Below, one piece after another: positions 2,698 to 59,750 of a stretch of 64,000 nt of DNA. The first letter of the stretch is position 1, and each line of letters begins with the position of its first letter. The DNA lies in the NCBI RefSeq assembly GCF_003334315.1, contig NZ_QOWR01000022.1. One strand, 5' to 3'. Below the pieces are notes generated by a model. That model saw only the letters and a program-made list of their open reading frames with translations, did not search any database and had not been told where the DNA came from. The position numbers and the translations under genes were made by a program. Source of the DNA: Escherichia coli. Its GTDB lineage: Bacteria; Pseudomonadota; Gammaproteobacteria; Enterobacterales; Enterobacteriaceae.

Positions 2698-3636
2698 TCA
2701 GTTAAAAGGTTGTAAGTCGACGCGCGCCATCATTGCGGCCAACTGCGGACGATCGGTAATACCCACATTGCTTTGACTTACCGCCAGGGCTGCAACAGCA
2801 GTCGCCAGACGCAGTGTGTGTTCACTGGATTCACGCATTAGCAAGCCATAAATCAGGCCACCAACCATAGAATCCCCTGCGCCAACGGTGCTTACGACAT
2901 CGACTGACGGTGGTTTGGCGATCCATTCGCCGGAGGCATTAACCCAAAGCGCGCCTTCGGCACCCAGTGAAATAACGACATGCGCAATACCTTGTTCACG
3001 CAGCGCATGCGCAGCTTCAATCACATCTTTCATTTCAGGCAGTTTACGGCCTGCCCAGATTTCCAGCTCGCGGCGGTTAGGTTTCACCAGCCACGGTGCC
3101 GCTTTCAAACCTGCTACTAACGCTTCACGGCTACTATCAAAGATAATGCAAGGACACTGACTACGCAGGCGAGTCATCCAGTCGGTGAACGCTTCCGGGC
3201 TGACGCCTGACGGTAAGCTTCCGCTGACACAGACCATATCGAACTGACCGAGCCAGCTCAGAGAATCAGTCACAAAGCGTTCCCAGTCGGCGGGGGTGAC
3301 TTCAAAACCCGAGAAGTTGAAGTCGGTCACTTCGCCGTCTTTTTCCGTCAGCTTAACGTTAATTCGGGTGCGCCCCTGTACAACCTGGAAACGGTTGGCA
3401 ATGCCCAGCTCGCTGAACAGTTGCTGAAAACCATCCTGATTGTCTTTACCCAGGAAGCCGCCAACGGTGACATCAATTCCCAGGTCTTTTAATACTTTGG
3501 CCACGTTGATGCCTTTACCCGCCGCATGCAGACCGGTGGTTTTCACCAGGTTCACTTCGCCGCGTTCAATTTCCGGGCAGAAACCAACAAGGTCATAAGC
3601 CGGATTAAGGGTGATAGTAGCAACACGTCTGCTCAT
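2698..3636 (-). CDS. fruK: 1-phosphofructokinase
   Basis: 312-aa ORF, PfkB family ([15 protein letters not shown]...); start overlaps the fruB stop (TAATG). Confidence 0.95.
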   Translation of the reverse strand: MSRRVATITLNPAYDLVGFCPEIERGEVNLVKTTGLHAAGKGINVAKVLKDLGIDVTVGGFLGKDNQDGFQQLFSELGIANRFQVVQGRTRINVKLTEKDGEVTDFNFSGFEVTPADWERFVTDSLSWLGQFDMVCVSGSLPSGVSPEAFTDWMTRLRSQCPCIIFDSSREALVAGLKAAPWLVKPNRRELEIWAGRKLPEMKDVIEAAHALREQGIAHVVISLGAEGALWVNASGEWIAKPPSVDVVSTVGAGDSMVGGLIYGLLMRESSEHTLRLATAVAALAVSQSNVGITDRPQLAAMMARVDLQPFN

Positions 3637-4766
3637 TATGCGCCCTCCCCAAGACCAGCAGCGATAGCGTCGCCGATTGCTTTCAGCGCCTGTTCAGCAT
3701 CTGCACCCTGGGCGGTAAAGCGTAGGCGATGACCTTTCTTAACGCCAAGTGCCACAACTTTCATCAGACTACGTCCGTTTGCCGGTTTGCCGGTACCATC
3801 AAGGTTTGTCACGGTAATATCACTGTTAAATTGTTTAATGGTATTGACCAGCATGGTACCTGGACGAGCATGCAGGCCGTGTTCATTGCGCACCACAAAC
3901 TCCGCGCTTAACACGTCGTCGGTCGGCGCATCATCGCTGGTCAGCAGCGCCAGCAACGTTGCCGCATCCGCTTTCAGCAAGCGGTCAGCTTTATTGTCGA
4001 GCAATAAATCAGCGAGACGCTTAAGAACCGCGATGGGCTGATCGTCATTCATCGCCACACTCACCAGCATGGCTGCCGTTTCGCCGTCCACATCAAAAGC
4101 ATTTGCCGCACGGCTTACCGCAATCGCGCTACGCAGATTGCCTTCGGCGCTATCGCTCAGCCAGATACCCTGTCCGAGATTCAGCGGTTGTTCATTGATG
4201 GCTTTGGTGACGAAAGTGGCCTCAACTGCCCCCGCCTCTTTCAGACGCGCAGCGTTCAGCGCCTGAAGAGTCAGCAGATCGCTGGCGACGATATCCAGTG
4301 TCAGCATTTCGTTGTCGAGCTTCAGCTGCTCACTCTGCTTTTCGCCCATCAGTAATGCGCGAAGTTCTTCTGCTGTTGTTGCTGACTTCAGTTGTTCAGC
4401 AACGGAATCATCGCTCAGTACGTGGGTCAGCTGGCGTAGCAGGCCCAGATGTTCATCCGAGCTGGCAGCAATACCGATTGCCACGTACGCTACCTGACCG
4501 TCACCCCAGGTGACGCCTTCCGGGAACTGAAATACCTGAACGCCGGTTTTCAGCACCTGATCGCGGGTGTCGGTAGTGCCGTGTGGAATAGCAATACCAT
4601 TGCCGAGGAACGTTGAGGTTTGCTGTTCGCGCGCCAGCATGCCATTGACGTAGCCTTCTGCTACATTACCGGCCTGCACCAGCGCCGCAGCGACCTGGCG
4701 AATCGCCTCTTCTTTGTCTCCGGCCTTTTCGCCCGGATGGATGTCCTGTACGGATAACTGGAACAT
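3636..4766 (-). CDS. fruB: PTS fructose-specific multiphosphoryl transfer protein (IIA-M-FPr)
   Basis: 376-aa ORF; a C-terminal HPr-like domain is readable (...[19 protein letters not shown]...). Confidence 0.95.
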
Positions 4767-4780
4767 AGTTCTCCTCTCTT

Positions 4781-4866
4781 GCTGAATTGAAACGATTCAG
4801 CCTCTATGAGAAAAAAAGCGCCAACCTGGCTTAGGGTTAAAGACAAGATCGCGCTGAAACGTTTCA
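4781..4866. promoter_or_regulatory. fruBKA promoter region with two Cra (FruR) operator-like palindromes
   Basis: GCTGAATTGAAACGATTCAGC at 4781..4801 and GCTGAAACGTTTCA at 4853..4866, both matching the Cra consensus from memory, immediately upstream of the fruB start. Confidence 0.7.
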
Positions 4867-5133
4867 AGAAAGCATAATACTTCTGTTTCAGCACGCAAGG
4901 AAAGCCGTAAAGTTATGAGCAAAAGTTTGATGTGCTGCACAATTTTTTGCCATTTTTCCTAATTGCTGATGGGAAAATCCGTTATCAGCAATTTCATTTC
5001 AGCAGCGTCAGCAGCCAATCAGCAACAGTGAAATGGCATTTTGATTATTCGTGGCGCTTTTGATTTCGCTGTCTGTTTATTTTCTGACAAGCAGCGTAAA
5101 CTCCGCGTCTTCCTCTTCCAGTGATCGACCAGC

Positions 5134-43697: not shown

Positions 43698-43975
43698 AAA
43701 CCTGTAGCAGGATCAAAAGAGTGGCGGGAAGCGTGGCAAAAACGGGCTTTTGCTCACATTTCAAATGGTTATAAATATATTTATATAGCGATTAATTCAC
43801 CAGAGATATTTCTGCTGGTTTGCTCTCTCATTAGAATTTAACACTAAAAGAGCAGGTAAAATTGTCTGAATGTTCTTTAAGTTATTCATAAAGCAAATTA
43901 ATAAATCTGATGAATATGTTAACCTTCAGCGACATCATCGGTGAAAACCTATAAATGAAGAAGGAAAGCAAAAAA

Positions 43976-44464
43976 ATGAAGACCATTCTACCTGCAGTAT
44001 TGTTTGCCGCTTTCGCTACCACTTCCGCCTGGGCGGCAGAAAGCGTCCAGCCACTGGAAAAAATCGCGCCTTATCCACAAGCTGAAAAAGGGATGAAGCG
44101 TCAGGTGATTCAGTTAACCCCGCAAGAAGATGAATCTACCCTGAAAGTAGAACTGTTAATCGGTCAGACGCTGGAAGTCGATTGCAATTTGCATCGTCTC
44201 GGCGGGAAGCTGGAAAACAAAACGCTGGAAGGCTGGGGCTATGATTATTATGTCTTTGATAAAGTCAGTTCCCCGGTTTCAACGATGATGGCCTGCCCGG
44301 ATGGCAAGAAAGAGAAGAAATTTGTCACCGCGTATCTGGGCGATGCTGGAATGCTGCGTTACAACAGCAAGCTGCCGATCGTGGTGTATACGCCAGACAA
44401 TGTAGATGTGAAGTACCGCGTCTGGAAGGCGGAAGAGAAAATTGACAACGCGGTAGTTCGCTAA
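43976..44464 (+). CDS. eco: Ecotin (periplasmic serine protease inhibitor)
   Basis: 162-aa product starting [23 protein letters not shown]... Confidence 0.93.
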
Positions 44465-44470
44465 ACTGCC

Positions 44471-44948
44471 GTGAAGTGCGGCACCCCGTAGGTCAGACAA
44501 GGCGGTCACGCCGCATCCGACATCCAACGCCCGAGTCGGTTGCCTGATGCGACGCTGGCGCGTCTTATCAGGCCTACACCGCTGTGAAGTGCTCCACCCC
44601 GTAGGTCGGATAAGGCGGTTACGCCGCATCCGACATCTAACGCCCAAGCCGGTTGCCTGATGCGACGCTGGCGCGTCTTATCAGGCCTACACCGCTGTGA
44701 AGTGCTCCACCCCGTAGGTCGGATAAGGCGGTTACGCCGCATCCGACATCTAACGCCCAAGCCGGTTGCCTGATGCGACGCTGGCGCGTCTTATCAGGCC
44801 TACACCGCTGTGAAGTGCTCCACCCCGTAGATTGGATAAGGCGGTTACGCCGCATCCGACATCTAACGCCCGAGCCGGTTGCCTGATAAGACGCTGGCGC
44901 GTCTTATCAGCATACGCCACATCCCCGGCATACCATGCCGGATGTGGC
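44471..44948. repeat. Tandem BIME/REP array: about 4 copies of a 113-bp unit, each carrying REP palindromes
   Basis: Units begin at about 44471, 44584, 44697 and 44810; each contains ccgcatccgacatc and gcctgatgcgacgctggcgcgtcttatcaggcctacaccgct. Confidence 0.85.
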
Positions 44949-44954
44949 ACATCA

Positions 44955-46613
<1,659 letters not shown>

Positions 46614-52810: not shown

Positions 52811-52957
52811 AACTTTTTAAGATTATTGCGGAATGGCGAAATAAGCACCTAACATCAAGCAATAATAATTCAAGGTTAAAATCAATAACTTATTCTTAAG
52901 TATTTGACAGCACTGAATGTCAAAACAAAACCTTCACTCGCAACTAGAATAACTCCC

Positions 52958-53050
52958 GCTATCATCATTAACTTTATTTATTACCGTCATTCATTTCTGA
53001 ATGTCTGTTTACCCCTATTTCAACCGGATGCCTCGCATTCGGTTTTTTTT
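52958..53050 (+). ncRNA. micF: MicF small antisense RNA (regulator of ompF mRNA)
   Basis: GCTATCATCATTAACTTTATTTATTACCGTCATTCATTTCTGAATGTCTGTTTACCCCTATTTCAACCGGATGCCTCGCATTCGGTTTTTTTT matches micF as recalled; it ends in its own intrinsic terminator and lies divergent from ompC. Confidence 0.9.
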
Positions 53051-56704: not shown

Positions 56705-56900
<196 letters not shown>

Positions 56901-59750
56901 CTACGAATCCCGCGATTTCCTGACCCTCTCGGCATATAACGTCAGCGTCTGTTTTATCACATCCAGCATTACCGGCTTCGACAGGCAGCTGTCCATACCG
57001 GACTCCAGACACCGCTGCTTCTCTTCAGCCAACGCATTAGCAGTTACTCCGATTACCGGCAACGTCAGTCCCAACTGACGAATGCGTTGCGTCAAGCGGT
57101 AACCATCCATATTTGGCATGTTGACGTCGCTAAGCACGATATCAATATGATTCTTGCTAAGTACATTAAGCGCATCGACGCCATCATTCGCGGTTTTACA
57201 TTGATAGCCCAACGATCCCAACTGATCTGCCAGCAAACGCCGGTTAATCGGATGATCATCCACGACAAGAATCATCATATCGTCATTATCGCTGACCGCT
57301 TTGTCCGTTGACGGCAGAGCGTTAGCAGGATCGTCGCTCTCCATCTCGATCAAATAAATACGCGCCAACAATGCCGGTAGCTCATGCGGAGCAGCCACAC
57401 TGTGTACCCACTCCCCTGGCGCTTTCTCCAGCGGAATACCAATATGGCGACGACAGAAGGTCACTACCGCTCTGCCCTGCCATTTTTTACTCACTACCTC
57501 GTCAGTGATCAACACATCTTCGGGAGTCGGTTCCTGCCCTTCGTATGTTGTAACGACGATGCCGCTGCGCTGCAAACTGGTTTCCAGGAACTGACAGAGC
57601 GACGCATTGCGGACCGCCAGCCAGCAGCGTTTACCACTCAACCCTTCCACGCCTTTTTTCTGCGGGTACTGAGCGCCGTACAACGGAATACGCACGGTAA
57701 ACTGGCTGCCCATTCCCGGTTCTGAATCTACCGAGATATCGCCGTCCATCATGCTGATCAGTTTTTCACAAATCGCCAGACCCAGACCGGTCCCCTGGAA
57801 ATTACGCTGTACGCCCGTTCCGACCTGGAAGAAGGGATCAAACAAGCGCACCACTTCTTTCGCCGGTATCCCCACGCCGGTATCGCGAACACGGATAGAG
57901 AGATAATCGCCATCCGCGCGAACATGCAAAACTATACAGCCGGTATCGGTGAATTTTATGGCGTTACTCAACAGGTTGGAGATGACCTGCTGTAAACGCA
58001 TCGGGTCGCCATTTAAGGCCACTGGCACATCCGGTTCAATAAAGCAGTACAAGCCTAACTGCTTGCGTACCACCAGCGGTAAATAGTTGGCGGTGATGTG
58101 GTTCATCACTTCACGCGGTGAAAACTCACGCGGTTCGATCTTCAACTGTTCCGATTCAATCTTCGAGAAATCGAGAATATCGCTGATAATTTTCAACAAC
58201 AGGCTGGAAGAGTTGTTCATTGCCGTCACCAGCCGATCGACGCCTTTCGGTAACTCTTTGGTTTGCAACAGATCCAGGTTACCGATAATGCCATACAGCG
58301 GCGTTCGCAGCTCATGACTGACGGTGGCAAGGAACATCGATTTTGACTGGCTCGCCTGTTCCGCTGCTTGTGCCATCTCCTGCAACGACTCTTCCATCTT
58401 CACGCGCGAAGAAACATCCACCAGCACACAAATGGCCACGTTTTCATTACGATAGCGCGAATGGACGAAGCTGATTTGCAGATTGGTATTGTTGCTGGTC
58501 AGGACATCAACAAAATTGACCTGCTGCCCACAGATAATTTGCGTCAGTCGTTGGCGGTCCTCATGCGTAAGCATATTGAGATAGGTATGCGCCAGTTCGT
58601 TACTTAAAATATTGACGCCATCAGCGGTACGCAAAATGCAGATACCCACTGGCGCGGAGGCGACAATCTTGCGATTGAACTGCTCATGTTCTTCCAGTCG
58701 CAGGGCGTCGCTTTCCGCCGGAATGAAAATACGTCGCTCGTACATCCGTGCGAGAGTAAACAATGCAGCTCCGGCAAGCACATTCAGCAAAATTGCGTTA
58801 AGGATCAACATGCGAATGCGTTCCAGCACCTTATCAACCGGCACCGAATACACGATGCTTAGCGATGAGGGTGGCAGATTTTTCTTCAGCACCAGCTCCC
58901 GGAACCCTTCCGTATAGCCAAACCAGGAGCGTTCCTGCATCCAGCGAGGATCGCCCTTAATTTTACTTTCTGGTCCGGTAAGCGAAATCAGGGTATGACC
59001 ATTTTCATCAAGAATGGTAACCCCCATCGGCAACGTACCCGGTAAGAAAAAGTTTTCCATCCGGATGGTCTGCTCGACACCCAAAAGCGCCTGCAACCGG
59101 TTCGCCAGATAAACTGGCGTCAACGCGTAAAAATACCCGACGCCAGGGCGCGGACCTTCGCTGATCCAGTAGAGGTTACTGCCGCTATCATCTTGTGGTG
59201 CATTTCGATATTTATTGATGCGTTCATGCAAAGCTTTCAACGCGGTATCGCGTTCCACTGGCATATCACGCAGACCGAAATTGGCCATGCAGAGGTTATC
59301 ACTGCCGATTAAAAATACCCGGTTGAGATCGTAAGCCGCAGAAAAATTATCGCGCCAGTAGCGCATAAACCACGCCAATGACTCCAGAGAACCTCGCCAG
59401 GTGTTACTCATCGCGGAACAATCGGAGTCGGCAAACAGCGGTTCAAACGCAGGCACATCCGCCTGCGTTTCTCGTCCACGCGGGGAAAGCACACCGTTCT
59501 CTGCCGATAAGCGATTTTCGGCGATGTACTTCAGCTCTTTCATCACATCAGAGGTGCGTTGAATAAAGCGCTGAGCCTGATCGGAACTCAGATTAAATTC
59601 CTGACGAATTTCCGATTCTCGCTGATGTAACGCATTAACGATGTAAAAAACGGATGAAAAAGCAATCAACAGCCAGAGCACTAACGCCAATGCTCTGAAC
59701 ATGTAGCGCGAGGCTTTCAGGGTTGTACGAAAAGAAGCAAGGTATTTCAA
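56901..59750 (-). CDS. rcsC: Rcs hybrid sensor histidine kinase RcsC
   Basis: 949-aa ORF with TM/periplasmic domain, HisKA (H-box SHELRTP), HATPase and C-terminal receiver domain. Confidence 0.95.
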   Translation of the reverse strand: MKYLASFRTTLKASRYMFRALALVLWLLIAFSSVFYIVNALHQRESEIRQEFNLSSDQAQRFIQRTSDVMKELKYIAENRLSAENGVLSPRGRETQADVPAFEPLFADSDCSAMSNTWRGSLESLAWFMRYWRDNFSAAYDLNRVFLIGSDNLCMANFGLRDMPVERDTALKALHERINKYRNAPQDDSGSNLYWISEGPRPGVGYFYALTPVYLANRLQALLGVEQTIRMENFFLPGTLPMGVTILDENGHTLISLTGPESKIKGDPRWMQERSWFGYTEGFRELVLKKNLPPSSLSIVYSVPVDKVLERIRMLILNAILLNVLAGAALFTLARMYERRIFIPAESDALRLEEHEQFNRKIVASAPVGICILRTADGVNILSNELAHTYLNMLTHEDRQRLTQIICGQQVNFVDVLTSNNTNLQISFVHSRYRNENVAICVLVDVSSRVKMEESLQEMAQAAEQASQSKSMFLATVSHELRTPLYGIIGNLDLLQTKELPKGVDRLVTAMNNSSSLLLKIISDILDFSKIESEQLKIEPREFSPREVMNHITANYLPLVVRKQLGLYCFIEPDVPVALNGDPMRLQQVISNLLSNAIKFTDTGCIVLHVRADGDYLSIRVRDTGVGIPAKEVVRLFDPFFQVGTGVQRNFQGTGLGLAICEKLISMMDGDISVDSEPGMGSQFTVRIPLYGAQYPQKKGVEGLSGKRCWLAVRNASLCQFLETSLQRSGIVVTTYEGQEPTPEDVLITDEVVSKKWQGRAVVTFCRRHIGIPLEKAPGEWVHSVAAPHELPALLARIYLIEMESDDPANALPSTDKAVSDNDDMMILVVDDHPINRRLLADQLGSLGYQCKTANDGVDALNVLSKNHIDIVLSDVNMPNMDGYRLTQRIRQLGLTLPVIGVTANALAEEKQRCLESGMDSCLSKPVMLDVIKQTLTLYAERVRKSRDS

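Follow-up and report, generated by a model that had tools for sequence, protein, structure and literature searches.

In an Escherichia coli genome, most of the intergenic region that separates the convergent genes eco and mqo was found to be filled by a tandem array of four 113-bp units, each built around REP palindromes. The DNA analysed was a stretch of 64,000 nucleotides (contig NZ_QOWR01000022.1), here called the window, and positions refer to it unless another source is named. We are confident that the array is the BIME-2 element known as REP161 in K-12, present in a four-unit allele, and that it would be a periodic target of gyrase and constitute a 3' UTR shared by the two genes. It is a long-known, catalogued element at an already studied locus and as such nothing new. 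The name REP161 was taken from the supplement of Harris et al. 2026, because the RefSeq record of MG1655 contains no repeat_region features.

Location and extent of the array

The ecotin gene eco occupies 43955-44464 on the + strand and mqo, encoding malate:quinone oxidoreductase, occupies 44955-46601 on the - strand. Both coding sequences were assigned from the list of open reading frames and from the RefSeq annotation of near-identical loci. RefSeq records disagree on the start of eco: some place it at 43955, for a product of 169 aa, and others at the ATG at 43976, for one of 162 aa. The genes are convergent and the array lies between their stop codons, i.e. it is extragenic at the 3' ends of both, where it takes up approx. 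90% of a gap of 490 bp.

Tandem Repeats Finder reported a single array at 44471-44910 with a period of 113, 3.9 copies, 96% matches, no indels and a score of 789. With a gapless repeat finder three copies of 224 nt were detected at 44461, 44574 and 44687, spaced by exactly 113 and 113 bp and with identities of 95% and 93%. This diagonal ladder at 113 bp is far beyond chance. When the sequence was laid out in rows of 113 bp four near-identical units appeared, and units 2 and 3 were the same in sequence. The initial annotation had described about four tandem 113-bp units between eco and mqo and had proposed a dot-plot as the check; both programs confirmed the units, and the expected ladder of repeats was present at that spacing. 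Of the extent of 44471-44948 given there, the array itself takes up the part to about 44910-44912. The remainder (44911-44948) lies outside the repeat and contains a separate, non-repeat hairpin at 44916-44948.

Unit structure and REP class

Within a unit of 113 bp, a Y REP (35 nt) and a 19-nt linker are followed by a Z2 REP (36 nt), inverted relative to Y, and by a second linker of 23 nt. Unit 1 (44471-44583), an edge unit that we designated type A, contains the most diverged Y palindrome. Units 2 (44584-44696) and 3 (44697-44809) are both type B and identical to units 3 and 5 of K-12. The terminal unit 4 (44810-44912, type C) is truncated, with a Z2 palindrome that lacks the CCTAC foot and is now a perfect 12-bp palindrome, CTGATAAGACGC/GCGTCTTATCAG.

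The consensus sequences of Y, Z2 and Z1 were used as quoted in Durrant et al. 2024. Y REPs were located at 44488-44522, 44601-44635, 44714-44748 and 44827-44861, with GTAG at the 5' end on the + strand, and differed from the published consensus at 6, 3, 3 and 5 of 35 positions in units 1 to 4. Z2 REPs were located at 44542-44577, 44655-44690 and 44768-44803, where CTAC ends the + strand copy, and in degenerate form at 44881-44912. The three complete Z2 copies matched the consensus at 36 of 36 bases, and the lone mismatch of the 37-nt comparison fell on the base that follows. Matches to the Y consensus were on the - strand and those to Z2 on the + strand, so the two types alternate in inverted orientation, and the GTAG/CTAC foot was retained in seven of the eight REPs, the exception being the last Z2. 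No Z1-type match was found across 44455-44960 when up to 8 mismatches were allowed.

The Y and Z2 palindromes form imperfect hairpins on either strand, as seen by covariance-model alignment and by RNA and DNA folds, the RNA folds covering single units as well, and RNA folding of the whole region gave z = -7.2 and -5.7 for the two strands. The REP palindromes that had been noticed in each unit are thus present both as consensus matches and as hairpins, the last Z2 being degenerate.

Two classes of such elements have been described (Ton-Hoang et al. 2012). BIME-1 consists of Z1 and Y around a long L linker, often with an IHF site, and BIME-2 of tandem Y and Z2 palindromes with short linkers and a copy number that varies between strains. 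In the eco-mqo array we found the Y and Z2 make-up, the inverted alternation, the tandem copies with short linkers, the extragenic location and the variation in copy number that define BIME-2. The Replication Risk Sequence, a 222-bp element flanking the Ter macrodomain, was also considered as an identity and rejected, since these elements map to dusC and lysO.

Gyrase and IHF

Gyrase activity at the K-12 copy of the array has been documented. In Table DS3 of Sutormin et al. 2019 a BIME-2 interval at K-12 positions 2308874-2309528 (654 bp) appears under the label 'eco>-<mqo', with 11 gyrase cleavage sites for ciprofloxacin, 7 for rifampicin plus ciprofloxacin, 2 for microcin and 5 for oxolinic acid in the eco-mqo region. 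The raw cleavage coordinates of that study (2308988, 2309101, 2309214/5 and 2309327/8) are 113 bp apart, one per unit. The same table notes 6 cuts in the eco-mqo array from Espeli and Boccard 1997, and this number, as given there, agrees with the six units of K-12. Gyrase was reported to favour Y over Z2, and the signal at BIME-2 elements went up when transcription was blocked (Sutormin et al. 2019).

Since units 2 and 3 of the window are identical to K-12 units, about four gyrase sites would be expected in the window array. Each of the four units would supply one site, and the array as a whole would act as a local gyrase-loading point.

The initial annotation had assigned to arrays of this kind binding of both gyrase and IHF. 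The gyrase part was borne out by the K-12 data. The IHF part was not supported: the IHF consensus WATCAANNNNTTR had 4 matches in the window and none of them fell within the array. As the array contains neither an IHF site nor a Z1 unit, the remark on IHF does not apply here; IHF binding belongs to BIME-1 with its Z1 and long L linker.

The hairpin beside mqo and the 3' ends of the transcripts

The separate hairpin at 44916-44948 lies 6 nt from the mqo stop codon and folds with -22.6 kcal/mol (z = -5.0). Its counterpart in K-12, at MG1655 2305063-2305108, has an 18-bp stem with -33.4 to -34.4 kcal/mol; the window hairpin is weaker owing to a 2-nt insertion (CC) and changes at the foot of the stem in its lineage. 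In the supplement of Harris et al. 2026 the K-12 eco:mqo hairpin is given as a bidirectional terminator associated with 'REP161' and marked 'Convergent'. The window hairpin has a stable stem and no U-tract on either strand. A promoter and terminator scan of 43800-45300 returned no promoter-like site and no terminator within the intergenic gap.

Transcripts arriving from either side would run into the REP hairpins and the terminator-type hairpin beside them, which would then form a common 3' UTR of eco and mqo. Hairpins in such a position would be expected to attenuate read-through and to block 3'-to-5' exonucleases. Stabilisation of the upstream mRNA, a general property of REPs that had been ascribed to arrays of this kind, is plausible at eco-mqo. 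A 2026 preprint on REP325 associates REPs located between convergent genes with higher expression of the two, and describes REP325 as a partly Rho-dependent terminator as well as a stabiliser of upstream mRNA. Against a stabilising role, the mRNA half-life of REP-terminated genes did not differ genome-wide in that preprint. As to the origin of the palindromes, they may first have been seeded by a REP-associated Y1 transposase.

Copy number among strains and species

Copy number was determined as the distance between the unique flanks of the array, using flank-only queries against all 5,426 complete E. coli genomes, and its distribution was taken from two systematic samples of 60 rows each (n = 120). 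One unit was present in 73 of the sampled genomes, 2 units in 3, 3 in 6, 4 in 5, 5 in 6, 6 in 21 and 7 in 4, and the array was interrupted in the remaining 2. A single unit is thus the commonest state (approx. 61%), and four units are rare (approx. 4%). The strain-to-strain variation in copy number that had been predicted was therefore observed, from 1 to 7 units. All these alleles were in exact 113-bp register and variation was confined to the internal units; the first and last units retained their own distinctive variants across alleles. Whole-unit steps between fixed edges are the pattern expected of in-register unequal recombination or replication slippage. In 9 genomes the flanks were 800-1500 bp apart, possibly corresponding to 8-13 units or to a small insertion.

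Genomes whose 600-bp flanks were 100% identical to those of the window (n = 60) carried mostly 7 units (47 genomes), less often 6 (8 genomes), and in a few cases 5 (1 genome), 4 (2 genomes) or 1 (2 genomes). Because the flanks were identical and the counts differed, copy number evolves faster than the flanks acquire substitutions. The order of units is A-B-B-C in the window and A-B-B-E-I-I-C in a 7-unit relative. Judged from this order, the window allele is the 7-copy relative minus three internal units, a clean in-register deletion. The K-12 reference reads D-D-B-E-B-F (6 units) and strain A23 D-G-B-H (4 units). In NZ_CP097882.1, a derivative of K-12 MG1655, the order was D-D-B-F, two units below the reference, which would be either a loss in the laboratory lineage or an assembly collapse. 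As three different four-unit compositions exist, four-unit alleles arose independently at least three times, and some four-unit counts may be assembly collapses.

The array was also found outside E. coli. When one genome per species was scanned with a linker pattern of 18 bases, 12 loci were returned, among them eco-mqo arrays in E. albertii (about 7 units), E. whittamii (about 2.5 units) and Escherichia sp. E1V33 (3 units). The other 9 of the 12 loci came from unrelated phyla, in a number near that expected by chance for the length of the pattern, and were set aside. The palindromes were far better conserved than the linkers, and the stems were nearly invariant among 26 distinct units. Linker changes were species-specific and common to the units within one array, a pattern that fits ongoing turnover within arrays.

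It is possible, if on balance unlikely, that the array has no selected function at eco-mqo and is neutral repeat DNA, in which units beyond the first are gained and lost by slippage or unequal recombination. The prevalence of the single-copy state (73 of 120), the range of 1 to 7 copies among strains with identical flanks, the independent origins of the three four-copy compositions and the two units missing from the assembly of the MG1655 derivative are all consistent with it. Retention of at least one Y-Z2 pair in all alleles examined, both of E. coli and of the three other Escherichia species, argues against neutrality, as do the much better conservation of palindromes than of linkers and the action of gyrase on the array in vivo in K-12. 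We prefer the BIME-2 reading with its gyrase and 3' UTR roles. Besides the half-life data, the lack of a U-tract in the hairpin beside mqo and the absence of a predicted terminator in the gap, the number of units counts against it: since approx. 61% of genomes carry a single unit and counts differ at identical flanks, unit number is not tightly constrained and the extra units may be neutral.

We consider it rather doubtful that unit number is instead a fast-evolving dial, with the expansions in the closest relatives (K-12, HS and similar strains) selected and not neutral. If so, each Y-Z2 unit would contribute one more gyrase site together with two RNA hairpins, and alleles of 1 to 7 units would differ measurably in local supercoiling insulation and in the read-through and stability of eco and mqo mRNA. 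The natural series of 1 to 7 units lends itself to tests of BIME-2 dosage, with gyrase loading and convergent-gene expression as readouts.

An assembly artefact, in which the four units of the window would be a collapsed form of a longer array of e.g. seven units, was judged unlikely. The internal units are identical and would collapse easily, and the four-unit allele is rare at window-identical flanks (2 of 60 genomes, compared with 47 of 60 for seven units). Complete assemblies with window-identical flanks (at least two, CP53 and 2018-11-3CC) nevertheless have an eco-mqo span of four-copy length, four-copy alleles of other composition occur in unrelated strains, and the A-B-B-C order is what a clean in-register deletion would leave.

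IS621 target sites

The foot of each complete Z2 contains the sequence ATCAGGCCTAC on the + strand (44567-44577, 44680-44690 and 44793-44803), which matches the published target, the sequence that the IS621 bridge recombinase naturally uses (Durrant et al. 2024). In strain 2017-02-2CC IS621 is inserted in the eco-mqo gap at ATCAGGCCT^AC in a Z2 foot, flanked by the CT core (positions 3301-5068 of locus L010). IS621 was present within the array in 16 of 5,426 genomes, in unit 1 in 2 of them and in unit 2 in 14, and these insertions were therefore independent events. In about 47 genomes the flanks were more than 1.5 kb apart, and IS621 accounts for only 16 of them. A further REP pair was observed elsewhere in the window, at 31290-31369, with an extra ATCAGGCCTAC site (31290-31300) as well as a Y-type unit (31340-31369).

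Relation to naRNA4 and to open reading frames

The units could also be read as genes for small RNAs similar to naRNA4. Two-hairpin RNAs processed from the eco 3' UTR would then bind the nucleoid protein HU, bridge DNA cruciforms and condense the chromosome. naRNA4 was defined from REP325, an array of six Y-linker-Z2 units, and a role in nucleoid condensation together with HU was proposed for it. On the + strand, the sense strand of eco, units 1 to 3 matched the Rfam family RF02564 (naRNA4) with 62.2, 76 and 76 bits, above the gathering threshold of 59.5 bits, and unit 4 scored 51.8, below it. The RF02564 model amounts to a Y hairpin followed by a Z2 hairpin, and any BIME-2 unit matches it, as does a second BIME-2 at 56711-56901. 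In the eco-mqo units the linker is 7 nt longer than in RF02564 and different in sequence, so that the match is carried by the Y and Z2 hairpins. The original HU and nucleoid-condensation model, developed for REP325, is itself disputed. The 2026 preprint, which has an author in common with the earlier naRNA4 work, reported no measurable compaction effect: nucleoid volume was unchanged upon deletion or overexpression of REP325/naRNA, and neither a stable HU-DNA-naRNA4 complex nor long-range contacts between REPs were found. Since the match depends on the Y and Z2 hairpins and the role of REP325 is disputed, we concluded that the Rfam hit says 'BIME-2 unit' and not 'gene for an HU-binding RNA', and we regard the small RNA reading as very improbable.

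The second BIME-2 at 56711-56901, on the - strand, contains two Y-Z2 pairs with an AT-rich spacer and scored 80.4 and 77.5 bits with naRNA4. Other Rfam matches at gathering level in the window were MicF RNA (52957-53050), a tRNA (27482-27555) and the L25 ribosomal protein leader (23741-23766), all expected in the region.

Several open reading frames overlap the array, as had been described. On the - strand an ORF starting MGVRCRMRRNRLIRPTGW was found at 44279-44647 and again at 44506-44760, and the + strand contains three ORFs of 37 aa. That they encode real small proteins is hardly conceivable: ORFs of 37-122 aa do occur on both strands, and in strain UMNK88 RefSeq lists a 'hypothetical protein', WP_148277499.1, that lies wholly within the array (positions 822-1004 of locus L003), but the period of 113 bp is not divisible by three, so that the frame shifts at every unit, the ORFs vary with copy number and are absent from most single-unit strains, one of them runs antisense into the eco coding sequence, and the conserved REP palindromes fully explain the sequence. 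The ladder of overlapping ORFs was accordingly judged spurious, as first proposed, and WP_148277499.1 of UMNK88 is a spurious ORF that is now in the databases. For annotation, the appropriate label is REP/BIME-2 repeat region, with no genes called inside, and the copy number in assemblies should be treated with caution.

Comparison with known systems

The closest known system is REP161 of K-12, which shares with the window array the locus, the 113-bp unit and the Y and Z2 palindromes, two of its units (3 and 5) being identical to window units 2 and 3. It differs in having six units in the order D-D-B-E-B-F instead of the four of the window, A-B-B-C, and in its stronger adjacent terminator hairpin (-34.4 compared with -22.6 kcal/mol), a difference due to the 2-nt insertion and the base changes in the window.

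REP325/naRNA4 (yjdM-yjdN, RF02564) is likewise a tandem BIME-2, with six Y-linker-Z2 units and a constant spacer. It is located within an operon between tandem genes, whereas the window array lies between convergent genes. The internal linker of the window units exceeds that of REP325 by 7 nt and has no sequence in common with it, and the spacers are different as well.

Elements of the BIME-1/RIP/RIB type also consist of inverted REP pairs in extragenic 3' regions. They are single-copy and combine Z1 and Y around a long L linker with an IHF site, in contrast to the window array, which is tandem and has neither Z1 nor an IHF consensus.
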